Virus record (IMG/VR): IMGVR_UViG_3300014613_000001
Coordinates: 1 to 64,000 of that record
Source: a virus
Direction: 5' to 3' (one strand)
DNA: 64,000 bases
The notes beneath the pieces were generated by a model. It saw only the letters and a list, made by a program, of their open reading frames with translations. It did no database searches and had not been told where the DNA came from. Below, piece by piece: positions 1,583 to 16,905 of this stretch. Within the stretch, counting starts at the first letter, position 1. Each line of letters begins with the position of its first letter. Position numbers and translations under genes: made by a program.

Positions 1583-1843
1583 ATGGAGAAGTGGTGTAAC
1601 GCGAGCCAGAGCGTCCAGCCTAACGGTGAGCTCACGCCGTTAGCTCTAGCTCTCCGGGATATCTCTTGGAACGGCTGTGAGTGTGATGAGGATCTCGATG
1701 AGGATGGTGTCTGCCTGCCGTGTCGTTGCGAGGCCGCTCTGCATGATCAATTCGACATGATCGTCCGTCGTGATGAGCGCATTGCAGAGTTGGAATCTGA
1801 GGTAGCAAAATTGCAAGACTTGGTGGATCAACATGAGGTCTGA
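1583..1843 (+). CDS. hypothetical protein (RIAELE coiled-coil type)
   Basis: AAGGAG RBS; CxC..CxxC; RIAELE motif. Confidence 0.5.
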   Translation: MEKWCNASQSVQPNGELTPLALALRDISWNGCECDEDLDEDGVCLPCRCEAALHDQFDMIVRRDERIAELESEVAKLQDLVDQHEV

Positions 1844-1868
1844 GATCGATAAGCCCCTCAGATGGCAT
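1838..1868 (-). CRISPR. solitary CRISPR-type repeat, antisense to flanking genes
   Basis: Minus strand reads ATGCCATCTGAGGGGCTTATCGATCTCAGAC, a variant of the consensus ATACCAGCTGGGAGGTTTAGTGATCCCAGAC with the stem retained. Confidence 0.75.
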
Positions 1869-1885
1869 TAGCAAATCCTGATCAG

Positions 1886-1913
1886 AGCTTACACGCGTCA
1901 GGTGCGTTGTCAA
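1886..1913 (-). promoter_or_regulatory. sigma70-type promoter pointing into the solitary repeat
   Basis: TTGACA (1913-1908), 16 nt, TAAGCT (1891-1886); same boxes and spacing at 16830-16857. Confidence 0.65.
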
Positions 1914-1932
1914 TAAAAAAGGAGGAGCAAAC

Positions 1933-2361
1933 ATGGCAAGTACCTTGAATCTGAAGACATTCGCGGCTGAGATGATGGGCCGGCAGGTCTACTACTCTCG
2001 GGTGGCCGAGCGAGTATGGAATCTGGAAAAGCGGCTAGAGGAGCACGTGTTCGTCGATCGACATCGGTACAGGACCGGCTACGGTTGGATCACTGGTGTT
2101 CGATGGTTGCGCAGCGGGTACACGGAACGAGATTCAGAGTACGGAAATACGTTCCACCCAGTCGGCTCTCCAATGATGGTCTTCCTCGTCGTCGAGCACC
2201 CAAACGGAAAACCGGTGCGGGTCGACCCAACATCGGTAGAGCTGTGCGAGTTCGATTATCGAGATCACACGATGTCAGAGAGATCTCGAAAGTGGCTGTC
2301 GGAGGACTCGAAGAACTGGCCACGCGATGAGCGTGGCCGATTCCTCAAGGAGAGCTGCTGA
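1933..2361 (+). CDS. hypothetical protein
   Basis: 142-aa ORF with strong GGAGGAG RBS. Confidence 0.6.
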   Translation: MASTLNLKTFAAEMMGRQVYYSRVAERVWNLEKRLEEHVFVDRHRYRTGYGWITGVRWLRSGYTERDSEYGNTFHPVGSPMMVFLVVEHPNGKPVRVDPTSVELCEFDYRDHTMSERSRKWLSEDSKNWPRDERGRFLKESC

Positions 2362-2368
2362 CGGTCAA

Positions 2369-2399
2369 ATACCTGCTGGGGGGTTTAGTGATCCCAGAC
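2369..2399 (+). CRISPR. solitary CRISPR-type repeat
   Basis: ATACCTGCTGGGGGGTTTAGTGATCCCAGAC, 7 nt after a stop codon and 43 nt before the next ATG. Confidence 0.85.
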
Positions 2400-2442
2400 T
2401 ACTCCTGGCTGAGCATCGTCGAGGCACTGTGAGGAGCAAAGC

Positions 2443-3153
2443 ATGAAACGCAACGAAGCGAGAACGCAGCTCTGTAAGATGGCATTCGTCGTCGGAGAGC
2501 GTATCGGTGTCGATAGTACCTGCACGTGTGAAGAAGGAGATGAAGGACTAGAGGAAGATTTCCCGGACAGGATCATCGAGGAGATGTGGAAGCACATATC
2601 ACACGATGATCGCCTGTTGGCCATCGAGGAGGCGTGGGAGCGCGAGAGCGCGTCTGCTACTGCTGTCGAGCAGCTCACAGTTCAGCTGGCTGGGTGCTCA
2701 GTTGCCGCTCTCGGTGGGACGTCTGACCCGCAGGTGGCCCGACCTGGAGATTATGGATGGAGCCCGGCCTATCAAGATGTGCTCGATCTACACCGACGCC
2801 ACTCGGATCTACGGACACACCTACTCCAGCTCATGGGTACTATCATCCACTGGATGGACGTCGGTCTCATCGACCCGGGAGCGGAACTAGGAGAATGGAC
2901 GAAAACGTCCTCACAGAAGGGAGCAGACATGGCAAGTGAATGGGACGCACCTCATTCGATGGGCGACGCGACGTGCATCAAGCTCTCGGACGGAGGCGCG
3001 GTGCTCTTTGACGTGGGGGGCGAGGAGATCTGGATACCTGGTAAGTGCATCCATCCAGATTCTGAAGTGGTCACCTCACACGATCCCGACAAGAACGTAG
3101 AGGGCGAGCTCATCGTCCGTGTCTGGTGGGCAGTCCGACACGGCTACGATTGA
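2443..3153 (+). CDS. hypothetical protein (possible internal start near 2929)
   Basis: 236-aa ORF with GAGGAG RBS; in-frame AAGGGAG-N-ATG before MASEWD suggests a separable C-terminal domain. Confidence 0.55.
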
Positions 3154-3163
3154 TCCAAGCTAC

Positions 3164-3433
3164 ATACCAGCTGGGAGGTTTAGTGATCCCAGACTCCATG
3201 AGAGCTGTGAGAGCGAGGCGCACTCAGATCCCAGACGAGAGTATCCGCATGCTCACACCTGCTGGGAGGTTTAGTGATCCCAGACGAGACGACCACGTCA
3301 CCATCACGCATACCTGCTGGGAGGTCTAGTGATCCCAGACGAAACGACCACGTCACTGTTCGCCGGGAAACTTAGTGATCCCGGACGAAACAGTCATCGT
3401 CACTGTTCGCCGGGAAACTTAGTGATCCCGGAC
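3164..3433 (+). CRISPR. degenerate mini-array upstream of cas12m-like gene (5 repeats plus 1 partial)
   Basis: Repeats at 3164-3194, 3255-3285, 3310-3340, 3356-3386, 3403-3433; partial GATCCCAGAC at 3227-3236; spacers 15-24 nt between the last four copies. Confidence 0.85.
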
Positions 3434-3457
3434 GGCAAGCGCAAAGGAGAAAAGAGA

Positions 3458-5305
3458 ATGATACTCATATATGAGTACGGAATCCCGTTTGACCCGATGG
3501 AGGGACATGACTTCGTCGAGGATCAGATCCTCATGGCCCATCGGTACTATAACAAACTGATCGAGATCGAGAGAGCGAAACGAGCTCGTATCCGGGCCAT
3601 TCAACAGGCTCATCCAATTCTCGGCCCATTGGTCACAGAATCTGACGAGACTCATGAGCTCTTCAACGACATCATCGACCGGCAGAAGAAAGCGAAGTCA
3701 AAAGACAATCGGTACCCCGAGGTCGACCCGGAAGAGTGGGAGGCCGCCAAAGAGATTTCCGCTGAGGTGCGGCTCAGACTCACGGCGGCGAAGGCGGCCG
3801 TGAAAGCGGAGCTTACGCCAGCCTATGAAGCCGCATCCCAAGAGGCGAAAGATCGGAAAAGACTGGCCCGAGCAAACTCGAAAGTGTACTGGGGCACATA
3901 CCTGATCACGGAAGCTGCAGCCGAGGCCGCGGTCAACGCCAAGCCCAAATCGAGACCGGGTAAGGTCCCGCCACCCTGGCACATGTGCCCGGCATTTCGT
4001 CGGTGGAACGGCGAGGGATCACTCGCCGTCCAGATCCAGAAGCCGAAAGCGCTGACGGAGGTGACTGTTTTCGGGCACGACAATCAGTTCAGAATCACGC
4101 CCGTTGACCCCTATGCGTGGGACAAGAGCACGCCTCGTGGCCTACGATGTCGCCTCGGCCGAACCACCTTTACGATGAGGGTAGGGATGAAGCGCGGAGA
4201 GACAGCCAGCTTCCGTATGGTCATGCACCGCCCACTTCCCCCAGGATCCAGGATCACGTGGGCAAAGATCATCCGTCGTCGAGTTGACGATCGTCTGTAC
4301 AGGTTCCGGTACTTCCTTCAGCTCACCGTTGAGACCACACTGTGCGTGCGGCACCCGGGCCTCGATAACGCAGATCCGGTCAGCATCCCGGTCGTGGCCA
4401 TCAACTGCGGTTGGAGGGCACTCGCAGATGGATCTCTTCGAGTGGCGACGTGGCTCGGCTCGGACAACCGAACGGGCACCCTCGAGCTCGGACGAGAGGA
4501 GTTTCGTGATCGGATAGAGAGAGCTGAGTCGATCAGATCACGCAGGGATATAGACCTCGACGAGCTCAAGAAGGCCATCGAGGGTTTCGGAGAGATCTTC
4601 AAGTCGATGGAGGTGGAGTGTGTCGAGAAGTGGAAGTCGTTCAGTCGGTTCCACGGGCTGTACTGCGATGTGCTGACGGAGTACGCGGAAAATCCAACAG
4701 AAGAGAAGAAGGAACTGCTCGAGCTGCTGACCTCCTGGCATCACAGGGATCGGTACCTCATGCAGTATGAGAACGGGTGCCGAGGAGGCGCACTGCGGTT
4801 CCGGCGTGAGAAGTACCGTCTGTTCGCCCTGGAGCTGGCGAAGGCCTATCCCGTGGTATGTATCGAGTCGTGGGATCTTCGACGCATTGTCGAGGATGAA
4901 CACCGACTGAAGGAGCCGTCGGCCGCTCGTGTAGAGGGAGCATCCTCTATCGCCCGGCAGATCACGCGTAACACATCGCTCAGAGAGGGCTGTGTCGTAC
5001 TGAAGCAGGGAGACAAAGAGGTCGAGCTCGCGACGCAGAGGTGCCATCTCTGTGGGTACGGTGCGAAAAAGCGTGAGCGCTGGGATGCGGCCAAGGAGCT
5101 CGTCCATGTCTGCGGCGGATGCGGCGCCGAGTGGAACCAGGACGTCAATTTCTGCGAAAACATCCTGACTACAAGCCGAGGCGACCTCGTCGGCGCACCA
5201 CAGCTGCTCGAGCCTAAGATCGTGATCCAACTCGGTCGGTTTCAGAAACGAGCTGCTGCGAAGCGCGAGCGTGAAGCAGCGCAAGCGGATGAACAAGAGG
5301 AGTAG
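3458..5305 (+). CDS. cas12m: Cas12m-like type V-M (formerly V-U1) CRISPR effector, 615 aa, non-canonical RuvC
   Basis: Start reassigned to ATG 3458 (AAGGAG RBS; the longer ORF runs through repeats). Motifs YNKLIEIER, VYWGTY, RRWNGEGSLAVQIQ, MHRPLPPGSRITWAKI, VVAINCGWR (RuvC-I), VVCIESWDL (RuvC-II), CxxC...CxxC Zn finger and NQDVNF (RuvC-III) parallel characterised Cas12m; flanked by repeats on both sides. Confidence 0.85.
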   Translation: MILIYEYGIPFDPMEGHDFVEDQILMAHRYYNKLIEIERAKRARIRAIQQAHPILGPLVTESDETHELFNDIIDRQKKAKSKDNRYPEVDPEEWEAAKEISAEVRLRLTAAKAAVKAELTPAYEAASQEAKDRKRLARANSKVYWGTYLITEAAAEAAVNAKPKSRPGKVPPPWHMCPAFRRWNGEGSLAVQIQKPKALTEVTVFGHDNQFRITPVDPYAWDKSTPRGLRCRLGRTTFTMRVGMKRGETASFRMVMHRPLPPGSRITWAKIIRRRVDDRLYRFRYFLQLTVETTLCVRHPGLDNADPVSIPVVAINCGWRALADGSLRVATWLGSDNRTGTLELGREEFRDRIERAESIRSRRDIDLDELKKAIEGFGEIFKSMEVECVEKWKSFSRFHGLYCDVLTEYAENPTEEKKELLELLTSWHHRDRYLMQYENGCRGGALRFRREKYRLFALELAKAYPVVCIESWDLRRIVEDEHRLKEPSAARVEGASSIARQITRNTSLREGCVVLKQGDKEVELATQRCHLCGYGAKKRERWDAAKELVHVCGGCGAEWNQDVNFCENILTTSRGDLVGAPQLLEPKIVIQLGRFQKRAAAKREREAAQADEQEE

Positions 5306-5313
5306 CCGTGAAA

Positions 5314-5542
5314 TAGCCAGCTGAGAGGTTTAGTGATCTCAGACGACGCGAGCATCTACCATCCGAACGCCAGCTGGGAGGCTTAGTGATCCTGGAGTGC
5401 GATCACATATAACCCGCACACCCGCTGGGAGGTTTAGTGATCCCAGACCACAGGGATACAAAATCATGTAGGATACCCGCTGGGAGGTTTAATGATCCCA
5501 GACGGACTAGAATGCCAGCTGAGAGGTTTAGTGCTCTCAGAC
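5314..5542 (+). CRISPR. mini-array downstream of cas12m-like gene (5 repeats)
   Basis: Repeats at 5314-5344, 5367-5397, 5418-5448, 5473-5503, 5512-5542; spacers 22, 20, 24 and 8 nt. Confidence 0.88.
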
Positions 5543-5571
5543 AGCAAAGAGAGGAGGGCGAGGGTACAGCG

Positions 5572-5859
5572 ATGGAAGACTACAAGGGTCCAGAGCGCAC
5601 AGTGCGCATCCCAACAACGTCGGATGATTGGCAGCTATATGATCTGCGCGGGAGCAACTTGGCTGCTGCTCGGCTGACGCGGGCGCTGAAAAAGGCCTTT
5701 ATGGCGTCGACGAGTAAGGAGTCGATCGCGATCATGTCAAAGGCACTCCGTGCAGATGTGAAGTACGGAGCGATGGATACGGAACCGCGCGCCGCGGCAG
5801 AGCGATGCCTAAACGAGGTGCTGGCGCGTGAGTTCAATTACGAAGGTACACTGGGGTGA
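5572..5859 (+). CDS. hypothetical protein lying between two repeats
   Basis: 95-aa ORF from ATG 5572 (GAGGAGG upstream); the longer ORF call runs through repeats. Confidence 0.55.
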   Translation: MEDYKGPERTVRIPTTSDDWQLYDLRGSNLAAARLTRALKKAFMASTSKESIAIMSKALRADVKYGAMDTEPRAAAERCLNEVLAREFNYEGTLG

Positions 5860-5869
5860 GTGACCCCGA

Positions 5870-5958
5870 ATGCCTGCTGGGAGTCTTAGTGATCCCAGAC
5901 AACTACGAGGGAACGCTATCATGTAGGATACCCGCTGGGAGGTTTAATGATCCCAGAC
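5870..5958 (+). CRISPR. repeat-spacer-repeat unit
   Basis: Repeats at 5870-5900 and 5928-5958, 27-nt spacer. Confidence 0.85.
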
Positions 5959-6109
5959 GCCTCGCTGCAAGAGATGTATGGAGAGTGGTGTCAAGAGAGC
6001 GAGCTCTCGAGCCGCAGGATGCCCGATTTCGAGGAGGCGATGCGGAGGGCCATGGCGCAGGGCGTAGCTCCGCTCAAGCCAGAGATCGAAATAACGGAGG
6101 AGTGATCAG

Positions 6110-6730
6110 GTGAGCTCCGAGAATATGATCATCGGGATAGATGGCTGCGGCAACGGAGCATGGTGTGGACCTCTCGTCGTTGCCGCGGTCGCTCTACCCG
6201 AAGACGCAGTGATAAAGGGGGTGCGCGACTCGAAGAAGGTGAGCGCCTACCGACGTGCCGACCTCGACCCCATCATCCGAGAGCGCGCCCTCCATTGGGT
6301 CATCGTGCAGTCCAGCGCGTCTCAGATCGACCAGTACGGCCTAGCAGCCTGTGAGAACGCTGCCATGCTGGTCTGTGCCCAGAGATGTCTCGAGCGCGCA
6401 CCGGGTGCTCAGGTCATCGTAGACGGCACCAGGCACATACGTGGACTGAAGGCAAACCAGAAGGCCATAGCCAAAGCTGATGACCTGTTCATGGCTGTCT
6501 CCGCAGCCAGTATCATCGCCAAGCTGCATCGTGATCGTTGGATGATGACGCTGGCTGCGGAGTACCCACTCTATGATCTACACTCGTGCAAGGGTTATGG
6601 CACGAAGGTGCATGGGATCTGTCTGCGCAAGCACGGGCCCTGCCCCGAGCATCGGATGTCATATGCACCGGTGGCAACGGCCGCGAAGGAGATGCACCGC
6701 CCACTCGTGGCGATCAAAGCTGGGGAGTAG
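6110..6730 (+). CDS. rnhB: ribonuclease HII (first acidic motif altered)
   Basis: GIDGCGNG..GPLVVAAV, DSKK, VIVDG, KADD...AASIIAK..RD, KGYGT..H and GPCPEHRMSY follow the RNase HII pattern. Confidence 0.85.
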   Translation: MSSENMIIGIDGCGNGAWCGPLVVAAVALPEDAVIKGVRDSKKVSAYRRADLDPIIRERALHWVIVQSSASQIDQYGLAACENAAMLVCAQRCLERAPGAQVIVDGTRHIRGLKANQKAIAKADDLFMAVSAASIIAKLHRDRWMMTLAAEYPLYDLHSCKGYGTKVHGICLRKHGPCPEHRMSYAPVATAAKEMHRPLVAIKAGE

Positions 6731-6738
6731 CGAGTAGG

Positions 6739-6769
6739 ACATCAGCTGGGAGGTTTAGTGATCCCAGAC
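6739..6769 (+). CRISPR. solitary CRISPR-type repeat
   Basis: ACATCAGCTGGGAGGTTTAGTGATCCCAGAC preceded by GTAGG; 13 nt before ATG 6783. Confidence 0.85.
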
Positions 6770-6782
6770 AGAGGGGTTTGGC

Positions 6783-7007
6783 ATGGAAGAGATCATCAGA
6801 GAGTATCAGGAGTCCGAAGGTTGGAACGATCGTGTGATCATTATGATTCTGTCCGACTTCGTGGAGATGAAAGTCTGGGAGCATGAGTTCGAAGAGTACA
6901 TCGAGCGTCGTGCAGAGGCTGATCGCCATGAGGAGACGCTGATCGCTGCGTTCGCCGAGGAAGAGGATAGCCCAGACTGTGATGGCTGGGACTGGGAGAC
7001 CGACTGA
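6783..7007 (+). CDS. small acidic hypothetical protein
   Basis: 74-aa ORF, GAGGGG RBS. Confidence 0.5.
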   Translation: MEEIIREYQESEGWNDRVIIMILSDFVEMKVWEHEFEEYIERRAEADRHEETLIAAFAEEEDSPDCDGWDWETD

Positions 7008-7679
7008 GTGGCGATCATAACCACACGAGGGCGGATCTTCAATGGGAGGCGCTTTGCACTGAAGGTCCGAGTAAACAGAGATGGTTTGTTTCGTATAGCG
7101 TGGCCCCACGAAATCGTTGACCTTTTCGGGCCTCCTGTCGAGGCGATTGCAACAACACAGGATGAAGCACTTGTGCTGTGGGAGAATCGAGTACGTGAAT
7201 TCACCGAAGCGCGTACTACAAAACGAAAAGTGATCCGATACAGGGTGAAGATTCAAGGTAAGTTTTGGGTCGAAGAAGGCGGCCACTGGTTTGTGCGGAG
7301 TGATGTTCCTTTTGGTTGTGGACTAGGGCTTCTCATCTGGGCTGGTGTATATGAAGAAACTTGTGTTACTCGGGATAACGCCGAAGACGTGTACAGCTAT
7401 GACGCAATCCCTAATGATCTTCCGCTAAGCATTCGTAATCCCGGGAATTTTGGAATTGATAGACACGGGCAAAGGCGTGATACTCACTCCATTCCATGGT
7501 CCGAAAAGGGTGAAGCGTTTTTCAGTCGGGCAGCGTCTTTGCTGGAAAAGCTGTCGGTTTCATTGGCGGATATGACCTCGAATTCAAAAGAATTTGCGGA
7601 GCTGGTAGAGACAGCCGGCCCAATGTTGCTTTCACCAGCGAGCGGAGATGCTCGAGCAGATGATGAGCCTATCAAATGA
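7008..7679 (+). CDS. hypothetical protein
   Basis: 223-aa ORF abutting the upstream stop. Confidence 0.55.
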   Translation: MAIITTRGRIFNGRRFALKVRVNRDGLFRIAWPHEIVDLFGPPVEAIATTQDEALVLWENRVREFTEARTTKRKVIRYRVKIQGKFWVEEGGHWFVRSDVPFGCGLGLLIWAGVYEETCVTRDNAEDVYSYDAIPNDLPLSIRNPGNFGIDRHGQRRDTHSIPWSEKGEAFFSRAASLLEKLSVSLADMTSNSKEFAELVETAGPMLLSPASGDARADDEPIK

Positions 7680-7949
7680 AACGTACTTGGCTGCACAAAA
7701 GTGATTTAGTAAAGGGGGGATTTGAGCTCTGGGATGTCCCCCAGCGCGCATACGTGTAAGGATGAGAGGTAGATATGCTTAAATTTCACCGTAAGGAACA
7801 ATGGGACCTCGAATGCTGGCCGTGGCTCGTCATCGCGTGGACGACGCCCGACAGGTACCGGCGCATCGCCTGCCTCTGGAGAGGGGGTGTGGAGCTCGGC
7901 AGCCTGCTCGTGACCTGGGAGCGACGGAAGCTGACGGCGGTGTGGTGAG

Positions 7950-8342
7950 ATGCTGAAACAACACCAACAACGAAACGACGACTGTGTCCGGGCGTGTGTT
8001 GCGACCATCCTTGAGCTGCCGATCGAATCCGTTCCGAATTTCGTAGCCGAACGGGGATGTGTATGGCTCGACAGGCTCAGGGAGTGGCTCCTGCCTCGTG
8101 GTTTAACGGCCATCAATGTCTCCTTCTCTGACAGTGACGAACCTGGGCTCGGAATCCTCTGCGGCGCGGGCGGAGCTGGTCCGAGGGGATGTGACCACGA
8201 GGTGGTGTGGCGCGATGGAGAGGTGGTGTGGGACCCGTATCCTGGCGGAGGCGGACTCGTCGGGAAGCCAAAAGATTTTCTGATCTTTATCCCACTCGAC
8301 CCGGCCCATGTCCAGCTCGGTTTTCTGGGATGCGATGAATAA
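7950..8342 (+). CDS. papain/C39-like fold hypothetical protein
   Basis: Q..DDCVRACVATIL N-terminus and H-x-V-V...WDP C-terminal motif. Confidence 0.45.
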   Translation: MLKQHQQRNDDCVRACVATILELPIESVPNFVAERGCVWLDRLREWLLPRGLTAINVSFSDSDEPGLGILCGAGGAGPRGCDHEVVWRDGEVVWDPYPGGGGLVGKPKDFLIFIPLDPAHVQLGFLGCDE

Positions 8343-8351
8343 GGAGTCCAA

Positions 8352-8576
8352 ATGGCAAAATTGTTTTACAAGATATATTGGGATATGGCGCTTGGAGTAG
8401 GACGAAACAAGTTTCGCCATGGATTCACAGTTGTAGACATAAACGGGGAAAAGGTGTCACACTGTTTGAACTACCTATGTCTGCAACCTACTCCTTTTAG
8501 GAAAGCCAACAACCTACAGAATAAGCATATTAGGATGGCTAAGAAAGCAGGAATAGAAAGATTTGAATGGGTTTAG
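8352..8576 (+). CDS. hypothetical protein
   Basis: AAGGAG RBS, AT-rich 74-aa ORF. Confidence 0.45.
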   Translation: MAKLFYKIYWDMALGVGRNKFRHGFTVVDINGEKVSHCLNYLCLQPTPFRKANNLQNKHIRMAKKAGIERFEWV

Positions 8577-8681
8577 ACTATGAAGATAAATGTAGACATT
8601 GACATCGCCAGGAACCCTGACCCCATCCGACGTCGAGGGCTCGGCAGCCCCGGTGCAGTTCGGTCTGCTGGGAGATGAGGG

Positions 8682-8888
8682 ATGACCCCGACGCACCGAT
8701 GGATCCTCGGCGCCCTGATCATCCTGGTCGCCGCCGAGGTGGGCTGGTGGGCGCTCGGAGGCGAACTCCTCGAGTCGCTCCGCGGGATGGCGGCGATCAC
8801 CTGCGTCGTCGGACTGGCGCTGGACGACCTCGGCTGGTGGCAGGACACCGTCGCCGTCGGGATCAGGGAGTGGTGGAGACCGTGGTGA
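8682..8888 (+). CDS. small membrane protein
   Basis: Two hydrophobic segments; GAGG RBS. Confidence 0.45.
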   Translation: MTPTHRWILGALIILVAAEVGWWALGGELLESLRGMAAITCVVGLALDDLGWWQDTVAVGIREWWRPW

Positions 8889-9012
8889 CCGGTCACCGAG
8901 GACGAGGAGGAGGAGGAGGAGGAGGACGAGGGCTGAGATGGCCGACGAGTGGCGATCGTGCTGACCCCCAGGACGGAAGAAGAGGAGGCCCCCAGCGGGC
9001 CGAGGAGCCATT

Positions 9013-9411
9013 TTGACAGAGAAAACCAACCTACAGAAGATCATCGACGCAATCGGGAGGCACCGGCTCCTCTTCGAGGAGCCGGAGCGGAACCGGGTTG
9101 AGGCGATTGCCGCCGTCCAGCAGCTCCATGCCAGGGTTGCCGAGCTGGAAGCCAAGCTCATCGTATCCAAAGGCGAGGTTATCCACTACAGGGGCGACCG
9201 CGATCGCCTCCGAGCCTTGGCCACCCCGAGATCGAAGAGCGGGCCTCCTGACGAGCCCTGCGAGGTCTTGCTCGTGAGCCGTGGACAGTGGAGCGGTACG
9301 GGGTTCATCGGAGGACCGCTGACAGGATGGCTCCCGATGCCAGCGCCTCCTGCCACCGAGGACGAGGGCTGTGTCCTGGTCTCTCCAGCATTGAAAGAGG
9401 GCACGGAGTAA
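9013..9411 (+). CDS. hypothetical protein (RVAELE coiled coil; GWLPMPAPP C-terminus)
   Basis: GAGGAG RBS; the C-terminal W.P.P.PP motif is common in phage accessory proteins. Confidence 0.5.
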   Translation: MTEKTNLQKIIDAIGRHRLLFEEPERNRVEAIAAVQQLHARVAELEAKLIVSKGEVIHYRGDRDRLRALATPRSKSGPPDEPCEVLLVSRGQWSGTGFIGGPLTGWLPMPAPPATEDEGCVLVSPALKEGTE

Positions 9412-9412
9412 G

Positions 9413-10048
9413 ATGACCCGAGAAATAAACCAGGATGGCTCGCTCGCAAAGAATGATGTAGTGTCATACCCAAAAAAGTGCTTTGGGTGCGGGTCCGCAA
9501 TATATGGTTTAGATACACCGTTCGGAGGGAGCTCTGCTCTAGACATAGAAGTGACCCGTTTTGGTCATATTACGGTGTGCCACACTAAGACAAGAGGAGG
9601 CGGATTATGGGCCTATCACCCAAAGAAATCATGCCTTTCTAGCGCCCTTCAGCATTTACACGAGCTCCGCTTGTGCGTGGGGTGCGGTAAAGTCGCAAAG
9701 GGTCCCATATGCCCATGCTGCTCTAGGGTGCTGGAGAACTCTGAATCGGTCGCTAGAAAACTCGACGAATTACGGCGAAATCAGCGTGCTTTAGAGGAGG
9801 AACGCGAACTCAAGGCAGCATGCCTTATAGCCGATCGTATCATCGGCAAATACTGGGTATCGGAGCACCGTGACGCCACCAGTGCTCATGAGCTTGCGCG
9901 GCGAGCTCGTGATTACGTCGTCCAAAAGATTGAAGCCGCTCGGGAAGATGGGTTCAGGCAGGGGAGAAGTCTGCTCCTGGGCATCCGGGACGGAACGCTT
10001 AAATTGTATGACACGTTTGATCTCGGTCCACAACGTGGGGGCGAGTGA
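9413..10048 (+). CDS. hypothetical Cys-rich protein
   Basis: 211-aa ORF with CxxC pairs. Confidence 0.5.
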   Translation: MTREINQDGSLAKNDVVSYPKKCFGCGSAIYGLDTPFGGSSALDIEVTRFGHITVCHTKTRGGGLWAYHPKKSCLSSALQHLHELRLCVGCGKVAKGPICPCCSRVLENSESVARKLDELRRNQRALEEERELKAACLIADRIIGKYWVSEHRDATSAHELARRARDYVVQKIEAAREDGFRQGRSLLLGIRDGTLKLYDTFDLGPQRGGE

Positions 10049-10104
10049 GATGACAACCGATATGTACGACCTGTTTGGATTGGGCTCCGATAAGGAGAAG
10101 TACA

Positions 10105-10305
10105 ATGTCTGACGTGAAAACTGATCTTGAAAACATCGAGGATGTCAAGGATCGACGTCTCGATGAGAAGCTACAAATCACACCGGTCACGCCGGCTGAG
10201 TACGGCGTCAATGAGGAGATCGTTGAGGCGCTGAAAGCTACGCACAGGCAAGCACTCTTGGAGGCATCGTGGCGTGCAGCATTCCCACTTCTACCGTGGG
10301 ATTAG
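10105..10305 (+). CDS. small hypothetical protein
   Basis: TAAGGAG RBS before ATG 10105. Confidence 0.45.
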   Translation: MSDVKTDLENIEDVKDRRLDEKLQITPVTPAEYGVNEEIVEALKATHRQALLEASWRAAFPLLPWD

Positions 10306-10357
10306 GGTCAGTCTACGGCCCACTCGTGGCGATCAAAGCCAGGGAGTAGCGAGTAGG

Positions 10358-10388
10358 ATACCAGTTGGAAGGTTTAGTGACCCCAGAA
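10358..10388 (+). CRISPR. solitary degenerate repeat
   Basis: ATACCAGTTGGAAGGTTTAGTGACCCCAGAA preceded by GTAGG; 17 nt before ATG 10406. Confidence 0.75.
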
Positions 10389-10405
10389 GTATGAGGAGAG
10401 TTGAC

Positions 10406-10696
10406 ATGGATTTTGAAAAGAAGCACCGGGAGAAGTGTTATGCCTACGATTGGAGCGGAGCGTGTGCTCCACTTTCGGCGAAGTTGTACAACAGCCAAGA
10501 GACATTCTCGGTTGGCATCTTCCAGTGGGTGAAGACGAGTCGGGGTAATCACCTCAAGAAGACGCCAATCATCTACCGGATCAGGGGCAGCGTACAGCAC
10601 CCCGAGAAGGTCTATGCTCGAGCTGAAGAGCTGTGCGATCTGCTGGACTCGGGGATCGAGTGGAAGATGAAGGGGAAGTCGGAGACTGTGAGATGA
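10406..10696 (+). CDS. hypothetical protein
   Basis: 96-aa ORF from ATG 10406 with GAGGAG RBS. Confidence 0.55.
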   Translation: MDFEKKHREKCYAYDWSGACAPLSAKLYNSQETFSVGIFQWVKTSRGNHLKKTPIIYRIRGSVQHPEKVYARAEELCDLLDSGIEWKMKGKSETVR

Positions 10697-10998
10697 GTTT
10701 AGTGCTACACGGGCTCAAAGGCAACGCATGGTCTGATGAGGCCGAAGAGCTGCTCAGCGGGTTAGAATATGAATTCCGGCGGATACCACCCGATGTGCAC
10801 CCCAAGACCAATCCCAGGGTGCCTTACATCCCCACACTCAGCCGTGAGTACACGGTCGACGGGGATCATAGCTGGCAGCGGCTCGCGGCTGGGCTCGACG
10901 AGATACGGGAGTGGGTTGACCAGCGACGTAGGCTGGAGATCCTCATCAACAACATAGAGGAAGAGCAACAACGTACAGGAGGAGTAGGAGATGAGTAG
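10693..10998 (+). CDS. hypothetical protein
   Basis: ATGA overlap with upstream gene. Confidence 0.45.
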   Translation: MSLVLHGLKGNAWSDEAEELLSGLEYEFRRIPPDVHPKTNPRVPYIPTLSREYTVDGDHSWQRLAAGLDEIREWVDQRRRLEILINNIEEEQQRTGGVGDE

Positions 10999-11323
10999 AG
11001 GGACGCCGACTGTCATCCAGCTTGAGCTGGAAAAAGATCTGATACAGCGCCAAGAGAAGAGGCAGACTGCTAACCGTATCAAAGAATTGGAGGATCTGGC
11101 CGAGAAAGAGAACGAAGAGCTCCAATTGCTTCGAGCCCGGGTTGCCGAGCTAGAAGACGAGGTGAAGCACGCTGCCGAAATTTGCGAGCAGTGGGCACGG
11201 CAGGTCGAGCTGCCGGACTGCGACCTCGAGTCAGTAGCTTCGGTGCTGCGCTGCTTGGTTCAGCAACTGAGGTCCCTGTCTATCGCCGAAGAGCTGCTCA
11301 TCCTAGAGGCCTCGAACGCGTAA
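10991..11323 (+). CDS. coiled-coil hypothetical protein
   Basis: GGAG RBS; RVAELE motif. Confidence 0.5.
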   Translation: MSRGTPTVIQLELEKDLIQRQEKRQTANRIKELEDLAEKENEELQLLRARVAELEDEVKHAAEICEQWARQVELPDCDLESVASVLRCLVQQLRSLSIAEELLILEASNA

Positions 11324-11357
11324 GATGGGCATAAAATACTGATGGTAGGAGCAGGGG

Positions 11358-11906
11358 ATGACGACTGACGATCCCTACAACACAACGTTTGTGCCCGTCC
11401 CGCTGAAGGAACTCGAGCGGCTGAAAAGTGACTCGCACGACCTCGACTTGATTATGGGCCGTCTTGCTGAGGTCGTCCTGAAGAATGAAAAGCTCAAGGA
11501 CGAGCTCGTTGATTTCGCCAACATACTGGAGTGGGTCGGGGGGAGTGGTGATGAGTGTCACGAGTGCTGTGGGTCGGGCCTGGGTTGTGAACTGTGCAGG
11601 GCGTGGAACCGAGAAGAAGAATACTGCAAGCTCCAGGCGCTACCTGGTAAAGATGGTTGCCAAGGAGACGCCCTAGATGCGGGTCCCTGCCCTCGATGCT
11701 CCGTCCCTGCCTATGTCCCTGCCGGCGAGTGGGTGGAGTGTGAGGAGTGCCGAGGATCTGGCTGGGTACCATGCCCGGATGGCATCGACTGGGCGTCCGG
11801 TGAGCAGACGGTCGGTGACAGGGAATGGTGCCCTGGATGCCGAGGCCGGGGCGAGGCTCGTGCCCCGGTTGCACTCGGAGTGGTCTACGACGATTGGGAG
11901 AAATGA
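11358..11906 (+). CDS. protein with DnaJ-type CxxCxGxG zinc-finger repeats
   Basis: CHECCGSG, CEECRGSG, CPGCRGRG. Confidence 0.55.
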   Translation: MTTDDPYNTTFVPVPLKELERLKSDSHDLDLIMGRLAEVVLKNEKLKDELVDFANILEWVGGSGDECHECCGSGLGCELCRAWNREEEYCKLQALPGKDGCQGDALDAGPCPRCSVPAYVPAGEWVECEECRGSGWVPCPDGIDWASGEQTVGDREWCPGCRGRGEARAPVALGVVYDDWEK

Positions 11907-12183
11907 ATGCTGGATTGAACGTATGCTCCAACTATACTGTTCCTGTTGGCGGCCGTCCTTGTTTTTGTGTTTGGGATGTGCGAATCCGCAGAGCGCGAAC
12001 CAGAAGAGTGCGACTGCGATCATGAGGAGCCGAGCTGCAGAGTCGCGGACACCTGGTACACCTGTTGCCTCAACGCAAGCAACGATCTTGATCTCTGCCA
12101 AGAGGAGCTCGAGCACGCAGAGAACATGAACAACTACTACTGGAGCTGTTGTCTCGGGGCGACGCGTACACCCTACGACGACG

Positions 12184-12654
12184 ATGATGAGGAGTGAGAT
12201 GGATCAGGAGAACAATGTGCATGGTTCGCTCGATAAGAGTGGGGTGGACATCGTTGAACGGGCGAGGGAGGTCGCGGCCACTCCTCACCCTGCACCGCTT
12301 GAGGCTCGGCAGTTTGCGGCGGAAGTGGTAGAGGGGATTGTCCGGCTCCGGGCTCGCGTTGCCCGACTAGAGGCCACGGTCTCGGACCGGGAGGATGAGA
12401 TCGGCCTGCAGGCGATCGTGATTTGCGGACTCAGAGATCGCGTTGCCGAGCTGGAGGGGGCCGACGAGTGGGTGGAGTGTGATGGGTGCGAGGGAAGCGG
12501 AAGAACCCTGCGAAACGAATACATCGGATTCCAGGAAGACATCCCCTGCCCCGAATGCCAGGGCCGGGGTAGGGTTCGCGCTATGGTCGCTGAATCGGAG
12601 GTCGAGCCCTCGGCGTCGCGGATGCTGCACGGCCTGCTGGGAGGTGAGGAGTGA
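12184..12654 (+). CDS. coiled-coil protein with DnaJ-type zinc finger
   Basis: RVAELE; CDGCEGSG...CPECQGRG. Confidence 0.5.
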   Translation: MMRSEMDQENNVHGSLDKSGVDIVERAREVAATPHPAPLEARQFAAEVVEGIVRLRARVARLEATVSDREDEIGLQAIVICGLRDRVAELEGADEWVECDGCEGSGRTLRNEYIGFQEDIPCPECQGRGRVRAMVAESEVEPSASRMLHGLLGGEE

Positions 12655-13016
12655 CCGAGATAGTGAAACCGACAAGGGAGATGACGATCCGGGAGCTGGC
12701 CGCGGCGTTGAATGCCAACGGGCGGCGAATCCGAAACAACGCCGAGTTCATCTTGGAACTCGCCGAGGAACTGATGAGGCGGGGTTCACTGGAGTACACA
12801 TCGGAGGTTGAGCGAGAGCGTGATGAGATGGTCGCCGCGCTCGAGGCAGCGTGGCAGCGCGAGGTGTCGAGTTCCGGCTCGATCGCGGTGATGCGGCGAG
12901 TCCACCAGCGACGGACTGCTGAGTTGGAGGCAGAGCGCGACCAGTGGCGAGCGAAGGCCGAGGAGGCGAGGACTGCCTTCGACGAGAAGTCAGAGAGGTC
13001 AGAGGAGCCGTGTTGA
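12651..13016 (+). CDS. coiled-coil hypothetical protein
   Basis: GTGA-coupled, GAGGAG RBS. Confidence 0.5.
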   Translation: MTEIVKPTREMTIRELAAALNANGRRIRNNAEFILELAEELMRRGSLEYTSEVERERDEMVAALEAAWQREVSSSGSIAVMRRVHQRRTAELEAERDQWRAKAEEARTAFDEKSERSEEPC

Positions 13017-13043
13017 CCGAGAAAGCTGATTAGGAGGAGTGAG

Positions 13044-13622
13044 ATGGGAACAAGAGGAGCGATAATCTTCACGATCGACGGTCATAGTGTCATCCAGTAC
13101 AACCACTATGACAGCTATCCGACGGGCCTGGGTAAGAGCATCTCGAAGGAGTGGCCGGTGCTGTTGAAGCGCTGGCCGATGGATGTGCTGAGGGAGCGGG
13201 TGCGCGAGCTCAGACAGGTATCCGAGGATGGTGATCCGCCGTCCGAAGAGGCGAAGCACTTCCTGGAGAAGTATAGCAACCTCGGAGTGTCTGAGAAGTC
13301 GCTGGATGATTGGTACTGTTTGCTCCATCGGTGCCAGGGCAAGTTGATCCGGACCCTCGAGTCCGGGCATATCATGGGTGACATGGACTCCATGGTGAAC
13401 GACGGAACGGCGTTCTCATTCATTTATGTCCTGGACTTCGACGCCGAGTGTCTCGAGGTCTACGAGGGGTTCCAGAGGAGAGAGCACGTTCTTGGATGGC
13501 GTGGGGCCGCTATGCCTGACGCAAGAGGGTTCTGGCCGCCGGCTCTGATCAGCTCAACCCCGTTCGGCAGCATCGAGTCTATCGACTGGGAGGCGATGGA
13601 AGAGCTCACCCGAGAGGACTGA
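13044..13622 (+). CDS. conserved phage hypothetical protein
   Basis: AGGAGG RBS; MGTRG...YNHYDSYPTGLG N-terminus typical of a widespread phage family. Confidence 0.65.
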   Translation: MGTRGAIIFTIDGHSVIQYNHYDSYPTGLGKSISKEWPVLLKRWPMDVLRERVRELRQVSEDGDPPSEEAKHFLEKYSNLGVSEKSLDDWYCLLHRCQGKLIRTLESGHIMGDMDSMVNDGTAFSFIYVLDFDAECLEVYEGFQRREHVLGWRGAAMPDARGFWPPALISSTPFGSIESIDWEAMEELTRED

Positions 13623-13639
13623 GGAGCATCGCTGATTGA

Positions 13640-13777
13640 AGACCTGCTGGGAGGTTTAGCGATCCCAGACTTGACGTCTGACGGTTGACATCTGATCGTA
13701 TACCAGCTGGGATGTTTAGTGATCTCAGATAGCCAGCCGGGGTCACATATTAGCTGGGATATTTAGTGATCTCAGAC
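13640..13777 (+). CRISPR. mini-array (3 repeats)
   Basis: Repeats at 13640-13670, 13700-13730, 13747-13777; spacers 29 and 16 nt. Confidence 0.82.
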
Positions 13778-13806
13778 GTGAACAAACGGATTACGATGCA
13801 GAGGCC

Positions 13807-14004
13807 ATCGGAAAGTGTAATAGAACGTTACGCATTTAGCTAAGTGGGTAATGTTCTATTACACTTTCCGATTCAATGTGTAGGGGGCGCACCACCCCAT
13901 ATCGTGCGGTAAATGTAGTCTGGAGCGAGGATACGGCTGGTATCGTAAAGTGTAATAGAACATTACGCATTTAGCTAAGTGGGTAATGTTCTATTACACT
14001 TTCG
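13807..14004. repeat. two copies of a ~60-66 bp near-perfect palindrome
   Basis: 13807-13872 and 13942-14004 share AAAGTGTAATAGAAC(G/A)TTACGCATTTAGCTAAGTGGGTAATGTTCTATTACACTTT, centred on TTAG|CTAA. Confidence 0.9.
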
Positions 14005-14021
14005 CTGGGAGCTTGATCGGT

Positions 14022-14246
14022 ATGACGACACGTATTCCGACATCAATGCTGGTAGAGTACCTTCTCCGTTGCACAAAATGTGGGAAGGATCACAAGGCTA
14101 CCATGGTCGCGAACTTGAACCTGGGTGACGTTATCGTCCCGCCTACGACGGGATCGAAATACGGGCGGTGTGTGCTCTGTCACAACCCCGGGCTCCGGGT
14201 CATGCGAAGATCTGACGACGGCTCGGGTGTTGATTACAACGCCTGA
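14022..14246 (+). CDS. small zinc-ribbon protein
   Basis: CTKC...CVLC; ATG 14022. Confidence 0.45.
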   Translation: MTTRIPTSMLVEYLLRCTKCGKDHKATMVANLNLGDVIVPPTTGSKYGRCVLCHNPGLRVMRRSDDGSGVDYNA

Positions 14247-14406
14247 ATTCGCTGGTCCAACCCAAGTGTGTGCTGCCTGCACCGGATTTTTCTTAGCTGG
14301 TCACGGTACCAGTCCGACCTCCGTGCTGTGAGACCGCATCCCTCTCTCTGAGTAGGGCATCCGCTACTGGTCCTGCCCGAGTATCGGATGCCTGAGTCTG
14401 GTTTTT

Positions 14407-14680
14407 CTTAGTTGATCATGTTAGTGATCTGATCCGTGTACTGCAAGATCAGAGCTCTCTTCGGGCGCGCTCTGCATCACTCATCGGAAAGCGGTATAGT
14501 ACATTACGCATTTATACATAATATATTATAATACATAGTATATAGAATTAGTTATATATATAAGTGCGTAATGTACTATACTGCCTTTCGACGGGTAATG
14601 TCACACGCACAACCAGAGAGCCCTGATCTTCGTGCATATGAGCAAGATCACTAACATGATCACTAACATGATTAGCTAAG
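14407..14680. repeat. nested inverted repeats around an AT-rich core (candidate origin or terminus)
   Basis: Three concentric inverted-repeat pairs share an axis near 14537; core 14511-14563 has 5 G/C in 53 nt. Confidence 0.8.
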
Positions 14681-14700
14681 AGGATGTACACCCAGTAGTG

Positions 14701-14732
14701 TCCCGACACCGGCCTCTCGGCCGGCATCGGGA
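14701..14732 (-). terminator. GC-rich hairpin at the end of the minus-strand block
   Basis: 14-nt arms with a GAGA tetraloop on the minus strand, about 20 nt past stop 14753; no clear U-tract. Confidence 0.35.
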
Positions 14733-14752
14733 TCAGGGCGGGCTCTATCTAT

Positions 14753-15334
14753 CTATCGGCGGGGGTCGTCGTCAGGGTCGGGCTCGGTCCCCCTGCAGGC
14801 CGACTTCGTGAGCAGCTCCAGAAGCTCTTCAATCCTCATCCCCGAAGCGGGCGCTGTCTTAGCCTTGAGCGCCGAGAGGCGCTCTCGGATCTCGACCCTG
14901 GCGATCGAGTTGGCCGTTTCTGCCTCGATCCGCTTCGTCTCCGCCCGGTACTGTTCTGTCGCCCGGGTGGAGATGACTGCAGGGACAAAGCTGGTGGCGA
15001 GTGCCACCAACTGGTCCAGCATGCCCTGGGCTGATTCCAGGGCGTTGGTTTGCAGAGCTACCTGGCCCTCCAGGTAGCTCTGCACGTTCGCCTCGTGCGC
15101 CATGTGGCACACGCGACATCGCACGACGCCGGCCCGGCACTCCAAGCACTCGACGCCTTCGTCGGCGCCGAGAGTCTGTCCGCACTCATCACAACGGTTT
15201 TTGCCCGCTGCGGTTTTTTCTCCGCGACATTGGTCGCAGAGCGTTCCGTCGAGCATGAGCTCGACGCAGTGACCCTCGAGATCTTCGATCTCGAGTTCGC
15301 GTCCACACTCTTCACAGCGACAGCGGGTCTTCAT
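14753..15334 (-). CDS. multi-CxxC zinc-finger protein with coiled coil
   Basis: GGAGG RBS; at least five CxxC pairs. Confidence 0.6.
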   Translation of the reverse strand: MKTRCRCEECGRELEIEDLEGHCVELMLDGTLCDQCRGEKTAAGKNRCDECGQTLGADEGVECLECRAGVVRCRVCHMAHEANVQSYLEGQVALQTNALESAQGMLDQLVALATSFVPAVISTRATEQYRAETKRIEAETANSIARVEIRERLSALKAKTAPASGMRIEELLELLTKSACRGTEPDPDDDPRR

Positions 15335-15608
15335 TTTGTCCTCCAGCTGCGAAAAAGATTGCGCGCCGCACCCACCCTACATGCACGGCGCGCGGTCCTT
15401 ACTTTTGCTTACTCGGTTGATCAGCCGAGCAAGGTGTTTCAGGCCCTCCGAGGGTAGATGGAGTCTCACCATCTACCTACTCCCCGAGGAGTCGCGGTCT
15501 ACTCGGCGTCCGCTGGATAGTCAGGTGCCAACGTCTGGAGCTGTCTCTCCCGTGATCACGGGCCTAGCTCCGCCCCGAGGTATCCATACCCTCGGGAATC
15601 TCCCTGAC

Positions 15609-15639
15609 TTCTGGGATTACTGAGCCTCCCAGCCGGCTT
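15609..15639 (-). CRISPR. solitary repeat
   Basis: Minus strand AAGCCGGCTGGGAGGCTCAGTAATCCCAGAA, 4 nt after the lipoprotein stop. Confidence 0.7.
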
Positions 15640-15643
15640 CGCC

Positions 15644-16108
15644 TTATTGCGCCGCTTGTTCGACCTGGACGGACCAGGTCCGGCCGGGGTCGGCATTCAC
15701 ATTGATCACAAATGTCCCTCCGGTCCTCAGCGTTATTGATCGGTGCACGTCCACCGGTGTCGTCCTGGGCGCGCTGTGCAGACTCACTTCGTTGACCAGC
15801 GCCCCGTTGTAGAATGGTTGTTCATCCGCAGAGCTGAGCTCTGCGGAAAAGAACTCAGACGCTCCAGGCGTCCAGTTGTGCTGCACCGACACCGTGACCG
15901 TGCCGGGATACAGCGCGAAGGTAGTTGTTCTGTGCAGCCCGGACCCGACGAACTCCCTGCTTACAGCAGGGTGGCTCGCTGGAGCTGGACTGACCGCAAT
16001 GATCGCTGCGGGCACTACCCGCTCCGTTTGCGCTACTTCTGTTCCTTCGATTTCGTCATAACAGCCAGACATCAGTACAGCTGCCAGAAACATGGTCATG
16101 CGTCCCAT
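15644..16108 (-). CDS. predicted lipoprotein
   Basis: Hydrophobic signal with lipobox LMSG-C; AAGGAG RBS. Confidence 0.65.
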   Translation of the reverse strand: MGRMTMFLAAVLMSGCYDEIEGTEVAQTERVVPAAIIAVSPAPASHPAVSREFVGSGLHRTTTFALYPGTVTVSVQHNWTPGASEFFSAELSSADEQPFYNGALVNEVSLHSAPRTTPVDVHRSITLRTGGTFVINVNADPGRTWSVQVEQAAQ

Positions 16109-16130
16109 CTTATCTCCTTCTTCCTTACCT

Positions 16131-16161
16131 ATCTGGGATCAATAAGCCTCCCAGCCGGCCG
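16131..16161 (-). CRISPR. solitary repeat
   Basis: Minus strand CGGCCGGCTGGGAGGCTTATTGATCCCAGAT, 22 nt before lipoprotein ATG. Confidence 0.75.
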
Positions 16162-16320
16162 AGCGAAAGATCATGTGCTGTACCCGCTCCCGGAAGGAGC
16201 GTCCTCCGTCTCGCAGCACGTCGACCACTGCCCGTGGTAGACATGCCTGTACTCGATATGGCAGCTCGTCGAGGCGGGGCACGCCAGGACATGCTTGTTT
16301 GCCACGAGATCTCACACCAC

Positions 16321-16351
16321 CTATGAGATCACTAAACTTCTCAGCTAGTAT
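16321..16351 (-). CRISPR. solitary repeat
   Basis: Minus strand ATACTAGCTGAGAAGTTTAGTGATCTCATAG. Confidence 0.75.
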
Positions 16352-16523
16352 CTGGCGGTAGAGACGAGTCCGAGAGCGGGTACAGCACATGATCTTGAGA
16401 GTTAGCACTCCCAATTCACTAATACTCTTATGTCTGTTTTTATTGGTTTTTGCCGATGATCAGCTAAGAAGAGAGCCCAAGGAGCCTGACGAATGTCAGC
16501 GCTTGATCCTCGGACTATCAGGT

Positions 16524-16811: not shown

Positions 16812-16829
16812 TCACCTATCTCCTTTTTA

Positions 16830-16857
16830 TTGACAATGCACCTGACGAGCATAAGCT
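16830..16857 (+). promoter_or_regulatory. sigma70-type promoter pointing into the solitary repeat
   Basis: TTGACA (16830-16835), 16 nt, TAAGCT (16852-16857). Confidence 0.65.
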
Positions 16858-16874
16858 CTGATCAGGATTTGCTA

Positions 16875-16905
16875 ATGCCAGCTGAGAGGCTTATTGATCT
16901 CAGAC
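16875..16905 (+). CRISPR. solitary repeat, antisense to flanking genes
   Basis: ATGCCAGCTGAGAGGCTTATTGATCTCAGAC. Confidence 0.8.

Follow-up and report, generated by a model that had tools for sequence, protein, structure and literature searches.

The window described here is a stretch of 64,000 nucleotides (nt) from the IMG/VR record IMGVR_UViG_3300014613_000001, a complete virus record of 177,773 bp with direct terminal repeats, of which it forms the left 64 kb. This phage encodes what its sequence identifies as a genuine homologue of Cas12m, the effector of type V-M CRISPR (short palindromic repeats, clustered and regularly interspaced) systems. It also carries 38 copies of a short repeat, whose fold and covariation argue that it is the handle of the Cas12m CRISPR RNA (crRNA) and that it is under strand-specific selection at the RNA level. 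The handles are set flush with the preceding stop codon, without a fixed distance to the next start codon. It is quite possible, though still short of probable, that they act in the phage's own transcripts as binding and processing sites of Cas12m.

The effector and its handle

The open reading frame (ORF) at 3458-5305 matches the Cas12m of PDB entry 23vw over residues 11-574, which is nearly the full length (E=6e-40), and Cas12m2 (8hhl/8hio) with an E-value of 1.5e-14. The Cas12m relatives are 573-630 amino acids (aa) long, and the proteins P0003 and P0004 are 53-55% identical to that of the phage. In Cas12m2, the His269/Arg270 pair reads C(-1), the last base of the crRNA scaffold (PMC10442227). 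Residues H257/R258 of the phage protein align with this pair and are invariant in 13 relatives. The near-full-length matches and the preserved His-Arg pair bear out the preliminary description of this DNA, which had called the effector Cas12m. At the RuvC-I position the alignment places an Asn (AINCGWR), where 23vw has an Asp and Cas12m2 a His; of the triad, Glu and the final Asp are retained. This Asn agrees by alignment with the N-type variants reported previously (PMC11013384). Besides cas12m, the 177,773-bp genome has neither Cas1 nor any other gene resembling TnpB or Cas12.

An AAGGAG is found 8 nt 5' of the cas12m start at 3458. A database protein of 627 aa (P0001) starts 36 nt further upstream, at a GTG in the loop of the last handle of the cas12m leader, which is probably an artefact of the gene caller. 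The handle carries GGAGG and then, in its loop, this GTG (window position 3422), and a G-to-A variant of the loop creates an ATG in the copies ending at 5503 and 5958 (positions 5492 and 5947, respectively).

A search with nhmmer located the 38 handle copies genome-wide, 23 of them within the window and 15 at 67 kb and 135-177 kb, with 35 distinct sequences among them. The repeat is 36 nt long, ends in ..AC and folds into the Cas12m crRNA scaffold. In Cas12m2 this scaffold is built from a G:A pair followed by 6 bp and C(-1), with a further helix (PMC10442227). The phage handle has the same architecture: its G:A pair and six Watson-Crick pairs are followed by the terminal C(-1), and its 5' part pairs with the loop to form the second helix. 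In the alignment of all copies, 97.5% of the cells are paired, double changes occur in 5 of the 9 pairs, and the three pseudoknot pairs all covary (A-U, G-C and G.U; C-G and U-A). The observed covariation score was reached by none of 500 shuffles. As several G.U pairs are present, the strand of the structure is fixed.

The conserved part of the repeat is about 31 nt long and spans approximately positions -31 to -1. Cas12m is reported to cut its pre-crRNA either inside the repeat scaffold or upstream of it (PMC11013384, PMC10442227), and positions -36 to -30 of the Cas12m2 crRNA are disordered. The extent of conservation fits both the cut site and the disordered segment, so the C of AGAC is the true boundary between handle and guide. 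Some copies are decayed, as are those at 5397 (at its 3' end), 10388, 135681 and 16321 (minus strand).

In IMG/VR, neither the exact handle pattern nor a single-protein search gave a match; a profile search did find relatives. About 60 of them, from IMG/VR and metagenomes, have regular arrays directly downstream of cas12m with a period of 72-74 nt (~73 nt) and spacers of ~36 nt. The closest relative with context (L001) encodes a Cas12m 55% identical to that of the phage and has a canonical array of ten 36-nt repeats with a period of ~73 nt. Its repeat and the phage repeat align as the same succession of blocks, namely AATGCC-N-G, one stem strand of 6 nt, GGCTT..., the complementary stem strand and AC. 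Beside the phage effector there is no regular array with ~36-nt spacers. Two other identities of the repeat were considered. An intrinsic terminator is ruled out, as no T-run follows the hairpin. A mobile element resembling miniature inverted-repeat transposable elements or repetitive extragenic palindromes would leave the CRISPR-repeat homology and the cognate effector unexplained.

Placement of the handles

All 38 handles lie outside called gene bodies. They are spread over 22 intergenic regions, and most copies are in two terminal regions of small accessory genes. The preliminary description had remarked that several repeats begin soon after stop codons, and the effect is stronger than stated there: no more than 5 nt separate the stop from the handle in 9 of the 17 clusters, where 1.7 would be expected (P=2e-6). 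At four handles (3146-3153 in the window, and genome positions ~142730, 154218 and 176925) an extra motif, ATTGA(T/C)C, precedes CATACC by 10-12 nt. At 3153 the TGA of this motif serves as the stop codon of the preceding gene, as it probably does at 154224, to judge from where the gene call ends. Some handle copies thus bring their own stop codon.

A second claim, that repeats are positioned one guide-length upstream of start codons, is not supported by the genome-wide count. The seven gaps on which it was based are exact: 43, 24, 29, 15, 13, 17 and 22 nt to the starts at 2443, 3458, 5572, 5974, 6783, 10406 and 16108 (minus strand), counted from the repeat end, which is the C of ...CCCAGAC and corresponds to C(-1) of the Cas12m2 scaffold. 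The Shine-Dalgarno (SD) sequences said to lie in most of these gaps are likewise there, as an SD-like run in all seven, albeit a weak one before 5974 (AAGAG abutting the ATG). However, these seven are a selection. Two more terminal repeats in the same range, which end at 13777 and at 15609 (minus strand), have no start within 240 nt, and two further copies, at 1838 (minus) and 16905 (plus), are antisense to the genes beside them. Two of the seven examples are themselves weak, as the copy ending at 10388 has broken stem pairs and a GAA end, and the ORF at 5974 is a doubtful one of 43 codons with a poor SD.

The 18 terminal sense handles of the whole genome stand 13, 15, 17, 18, 22, 22, 24, 29, 43, 46, 49, 51, 58, 119, 167, 173, 244 and 274 nt from the next start. 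With the free length of every intergenic region taken into account, a gap of at most 24 nt occurs in 7 of the 17 clusters, against 6.6 expected (P=0.5), and in 4 of the 11 regions that offer 60 free nt or more, against 2.0 expected (P=0.11); with 12 nt reserved for the SD, closeness to the start has P=0.17. Since none of the three tests shows an enrichment, closeness to starts does not go beyond what is expected by chance in so compact a genome. The intergenic share of the phage genome is 14%. Where neighbouring genes run in the same direction and no repeat intervenes, the median junction is 8.5 nt, so any untranslated insert that leaves an SD adjoins both of its neighbours. The suggestion that the 'spacer' of a terminal repeat is the ribosome-binding site (RBS) of the next gene could hold for 8 of the 18 terminal handles, which have an SD within the first 20 nt, and fails for the remaining 10. 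Occlusion of the RBS would be possible solely in the eight tightest junctions and is not supported as a general rule. Folding of the RNA segments from handle to start gave no consistent alternative pairing that would hide or free the SD.

The handles are co-oriented with the flanking genes in 32 of 38 cases and antisense in six. Five of the antisense handles have a full module (T-tract, TTGACA, 16 nt, TAAGCT, 12 nt, handle), and the sixth module is truncated. As the sense copies are co-oriented with genes and the antisense copies are driven by promoters, transcription of the handle strand looks required. The promoter of the module occurs nowhere else in the genome and is found solely before variant-B handles. 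The five modules are near-identical; both promoter boxes are kept, and the 16-nt spacer varies with paired changes (ATGC..GCAT and ACGC..GCGT) that preserve a small dyad. Each antisense guide reaches the final codons or the stop of the gene that converges on it, and that of the copy at 156323 (minus strand) lies exactly over the stop codon. Read in the direction of the gene beside it, the module gives stops in all three frames. A scan of 1-17.5 kb for sigma-70 promoters and terminators gave a signal at the level of shuffled sequence. Another variant-B handle lies between the genes at genome positions 165913-167922 (a DinG/XPD-type helicase, Helicase_C_2 E=1e-39) and 168083-168784 (a deoxynucleoside kinase; L129). 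DinG helicases accompany type IV CRISPR systems.

In the cas12m leader the five handles are spaced 91, 55, 46 and 47 nt from start to start, with internal 'spacers' of 10-19 nt, and the final two belong to a variant specific to the leader, with the stem CCGGGA/TCCCGG and the pseudoknot GTT/AAC. Sense handles upstream of cas12m were found in six other loci of 104 non-redundant ones, whose Cas12m proteins are 25-32% identical to that of the phage (Table 1). One of them, L113, has the layout of the present locus. The leader layout therefore recurs, at no fixed distance from the start (13-184 nt), and it fits autogenous control of cas12m; the negative autoregulation suggested in the preliminary description, though still a proposal, thereby gains comparative support. 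Dispersal of handles is also seen in other phages, of which the present genome is the extreme case. In a second complete Cas12m phage (G002, 110 kb), a canonical array is joined by about five solitary handles elsewhere, the surroundings of which are too noisy to read in this high-GC genome. One of them, at 83.3 kb (L136, ~560-630), stands right after an apparent tRNA 3' end (GGTTCGATTCC).

Two pairs of copies document how the handles multiplied. The segment 5918-5959 is identical to 5463-5504 over 42 nt, so that the copy at 5923-5958 and its 5' flank match the copy ending at 5503. The segment 10315-10387 is 89% identical over 73 nt to 6696-6768, which comprises ~35-40 nt of the RNase HII 3' end and the handle. 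This duplication of a gene end with its handle, 3.6 kb downstream, indicates that handles spread together with their flanks.

Table 1. Handles, promoter modules and associated genes (window positions, unless given as genome positions), with the leader handles of other cas12m loci
Feature	Position	Strand	Details
Antisense unit	1838..1922	-	handle 1838-1873, module 1874-1922; guide enters last codons of plus-strand gene 1583-1843
Solitary handle	2364..2399	+	2 nt past stop 2361; 43 nt before ATG 2443
Five handles, cas12m leader	3159-3194, 3250-3285, 3305-3340, 3351-3386, 3398-3433	+	last ends 24 nt before cas12m ATG
Handle remnant, cas12m leader	3227-3238	+	
cas12m	3458..5305	+	615 aa; RuvC triad N-E-D
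Five handles after cas12m	5309..5542	+	ends 5344, 5397, 5448, 5503, 5542; spacers 17, 15, 19, 3 nt; first 3 nt past cas12m stop, last 29 nt before ATG 5572
Two handles	5865-5900, 5923-5958	+	first 5 nt past stop 5859; last 15 nt before ATG 5974
RNase HII gene	6110-6730		Pfam E=8e-29
Solitary handle	6734..6769	+	3 nt past RNase HII stop 6730; 13 nt before ATG 6783; tightest junction
Decayed handle	10353..10388	+	17 nt before ATG 10406; two stem mismatches, ends GAA
Three handles, end of plus-strand gene block	13635..13777	+	ends 13670, 13730, 13777; spacers 24, 11 nt; no start within 240 nt downstream
Handle	15609-15644	-	abuts stop of gene 15644-16108; no start within 240 nt
Handle	16131-16166	-	22 nt before ATG 16108
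Handle	16321-16356	-	sense to minus-strand genes
Antisense unit	16821..16905	+	module 16821-16869; among minus-strand genes
Antisense modules elsewhere	genome 142188-142236, 156359-156406, 157804-157852; truncated 160888-160911	-	
L034			two handles 4 nt apart; 13 nt to cas12m GTG
L068			sigma-70-like promoter, then one handle; 35 nt to cas12m ATG
L113 (Ga0268298_10023635, 4.5-kb contig)	1463-1652 and 3507-3795 (contig)		five tight leader handles and irregular downstream cluster; 36 nt
L116			two handles; 36 nt to cas12m start
L036			promoter, then two handles; 86 nt to cas12m start
L100			one handle; 184 nt to cas12m start

Two further repeated elements were noted. Right behind the cluster at 13.6 kb, at the junction of the plus- and minus-strand gene blocks, there are three copies (13806-13868, 13941-14003 and 14482-14514; two of them 97% identical) of a 62-nt element with a long perfect hairpin, GAAAGTGTAATAGAAC...GTTCTATTACACTTTC, which could be a terminator or an operator. 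The intergenic segment 17459-17522 contains TGTGTGCACAACG-type units in a short run, either tandem or inverted. GenBank phages gave no DNA match to 2300-7100, and nearly all large proteins of the window were without a match in PHROGs and Pfam.

Proposed action on transcripts and the alternatives

The V-M effector of this phage is a putative non-cutting binder that is accompanied by neither Cas1 nor a normal array, and its handle appears to have been copied to the 38 intergenic sites. Being co-oriented with their flanking genes, 32 of the handles would be transcribed within polycistronic mRNAs. In the reading that we favour, Cas12m would recognise the pseudoknotted handle in the phage mRNA, would probably cut just 5' of it, as in pre-crRNA and a few nt past the upstream stop, and would remain bound to the downstream cistron at its newly made 5' end. 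The outcome would be a punctuation of the mRNA, with separate fates for the upstream and downstream cistrons. At the minimal junctions (8 of 18), where an SD within 17-20 nt would be held as 'guide', initiation could be hindered, and the five handles of the cas12m leader would result in autogenous feedback. The fuller form of this proposal is rather doubtful, namely that the phage has domesticated Cas12m as an RNA-binding regulator, which cuts transcripts at cistron boundaries and controls the translation or stability of neighbouring genes, its own included.

Action in cis on the transcript is favoured because most spacers are too short to guide and no guide has another target in the phage beyond chance. 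Handles within clusters are spaced 39-60 nt apart, with one spacing of 91 nt, and the internal spacers are 3-24 nt long. Most of them are 3-16 nt and five are at least 17 nt; the heteroduplex of Cas12m2 measures 17 bp. A search for second targets of the 38 guides inside the phage (16 nt, at most 2 mismatches) gave 7 loose matches, against 4.6 expected. With the same thresholds, we found no spacer-like segment partly complementary to the cas promoter next to a protospacer-adjacent motif (PAM), as would be characteristic of a CreR-type RNA. Handles that act on RNA would account for the strand-specific selection, the need for transcription, the short spacers, the lack of targets in trans, the untranslated placement and the leader handles. 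Their abutment to stop codons would be expected too, as ribosomes must not run through a handle and handles would mark the ends of cistrons.

A number of points weigh against this interpretation. Cas12m has been shown to act on DNA alone and leaves target RNA uncut in vitro, and its published activities are DNA binding, transcriptional silencing and pre-crRNA processing; translational control is not among them. As the phage protein appears to keep the entire Cas12m architecture, DNA targeting is probably retained. The promoter-driven antisense units look like ordinary guide-RNA genes, and all six are left unexplained by a model of RBS occlusion. Moreover, closeness to the RBS is not enriched, and ten terminal handles stand 43-274 nt from any start. 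The gene calls are home-made, and some of the starts are uncertain.

Two of the alternative explanations rely on DNA binding. The handles might belong to single-guide crRNA genes that silence outside DNA, such as that of phages, plasmids or host genes, with the sense copies transcribed by read-through, the antisense copies from their own promoter, and the adjacency to RBSs incidental. Such genes would use the established ability of Cas12m to block transcription by binding DNA, and they would explain why the protein is full-length with conserved handle-reading residues, why five units have a dedicated promoter with transcription starting a few nt before the handle, and why five internal spacers reach 17 nt or more. 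Furthermore, V-M systems of plasmids and prophages are thought to serve competition among mobile elements (PMC11656645). Nevertheless, we consider this explanation unlikely. Most internal spacers fall short of the heteroduplex, and the terminal 'guides' are RBS or coding sequence of the phage, which leaves them no freedom to evolve towards foreign targets. Cas1 is lacking, an exact match in IMG/VR was found for neither of two of the longest internal spacers, and the relatives that presumably do silence outside DNA keep regular arrays with a ~73-nt period. If the handles were ordinary guides after all, the layout would still show how an array can dissolve into single guides, some driven by promoters and others embedded in operons, in a virus unable to acquire spacers. 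In the other explanation, the handle and the adjacent 17-20 nt direct Cas12m to their own locus, where it acts as a roadblock that attenuates read-through or terminates the convergent gene. By construction each guide is perfectly complementary to the neighbouring DNA, antisense guides can lie exactly over the stop of the convergent gene, as at 156323 (minus strand), and binding of its own DNA by a non-cutting roadblock of RNA polymerase would not be lethal. Yet the PAM position is held by an invariant GAC, whereas the characterised Cas12m PAMs are T- or C-rich, and the canonical arrays of the relatives end in the same ..GAC and would all silence themselves, which makes self-targeting improbable.

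Two other explanations do without guides altogether. Handle transcripts could serve as decoys that soak up Cas12m, be it that of the host, of a plasmid or of the phage itself, and so set the level of free effector. Solitary repeat units of phages do act as RNA anti-CRISPRs (PMC10651486), and many of the copies have no usable spacer, for instance those in tight tandems 3-11 nt apart. Here, however, the matching effector is encoded by the phage, and a sponge needs neither 22 intergenic regions nor abutment to stops nor upkeep in both terminal regions. We regard decoys as very unlikely. We would give a similarly low probability to functionless remnants, either neutral or selfish, of a decaying array that was scattered by duplication and recombination and survived between genes. 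Copies have indeed been duplicated with their flanks (6696-6768/10315-10387, 5463-5504/5918-5959 and the five promoter modules), some are decayed, and compaction to a median junction of 8.5 nt is enough to bring inserts near a stop and a start. On the other hand, remnants would not be expected to show compensatory changes in both helices with 97.5% pairing over 35 distinct copies, conserved promoter boxes around a variable promoter spacer, a non-random orientation or the same leader layout in unrelated loci.

Comparison with known systems

By its sequence features, the locus appears closest in kind to type V-M systems (MmCas12m2, GoCas12m and MsCas12m; PMC10442227, PMC11013384), with which it shares a homologous effector of ~600 aa, the RuvC site of which may likewise be impaired, the same scaffold including the pseudoknot, the His-Arg reader of C(-1), no need of a trans-activating crRNA (tracrRNA), no adaptation genes and carriage by a mobile element. 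It differs from them in that the regular array is replaced by 38 handles in 22 intergenic regions, with a spacing of 39-60 nt in clusters, and in that handles stand in the leader of the effector and in six promoter-driven antisense units. Type V-M systems are mainly found on plasmids and in some prophages (reviews; PMC11656645), and a 2026 preprint presents what it describes as the first phage Cas12m, with a canonical array.

CreR and other degenerate mini-CRISPRs, tracr-L and crlRNAs (bioRxiv 10.1101/2023.03.10.532045; PMC10120712; 10.1101/2024.12.27.630466) are similar in that degenerate repeats beside a cas gene serve autoregulation and not defence. Those RNAs, however, guide the effector to promoter DNA by partial complementarity next to a PAM, whereas the phage handles have no complementary second site, lie inside the mRNA leader and are proposed to act on RNA. 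Type V-M is absent from the described cases. Phage RNA anti-CRISPRs (Racrs; PMC10651486) resemble the present handles as single spacer-less repeats scattered in a phage genome, but Racrs mimic the repeat of the host to disable its Cas proteins, whereas here the cognate effector is encoded by the phage and the copies are far more numerous. In the literature, we found no paper on dispersed handles of a phage's own Cas12m or on natural translational control by a Cas12 handle. New here are the statistics of handle placement and the recurrent cas12m-leader layout in relatives; the latter, seen across distant V-M loci, gives a testable prediction of autogenous cas12m control.

Phages are known to punctuate their messages by other means. 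In T7, RNase III sites between the early genes are intergenic RNA signals that punctuate the early polycistronic mRNAs. In T4, RegA is an autogenous translational repressor of early messages, its own included, and RegB cuts in SD sequences. These systems differ from the present one in their unrelated protein families and RNA signals, and none involves a CRISPR effector. The principle itself works, as demonstrated by engineered mRNAs in which repeat hairpins of Csy4/Cas6f or Cas12a, placed between cistrons or before the RBS, insulate, cleave or repress messages (PMC13478208). Such constructs are synthetic and use a different effector (Cas6f), and we found no natural counterpart in the literature searched. 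If the handles do work on RNA, the phage would provide that counterpart to mRNA processing by Csy4/Cas6f, and its Cas12m would be the first natural Cas12 to organise the expression of a whole genome region via the repeat alone. A post-transcriptional mode would then be added to the DNA-level cr-like regulators, with a role for Cas12 that does without DNA targeting, and the protein and its handle would make a compact orthogonal pair for the design of operons.

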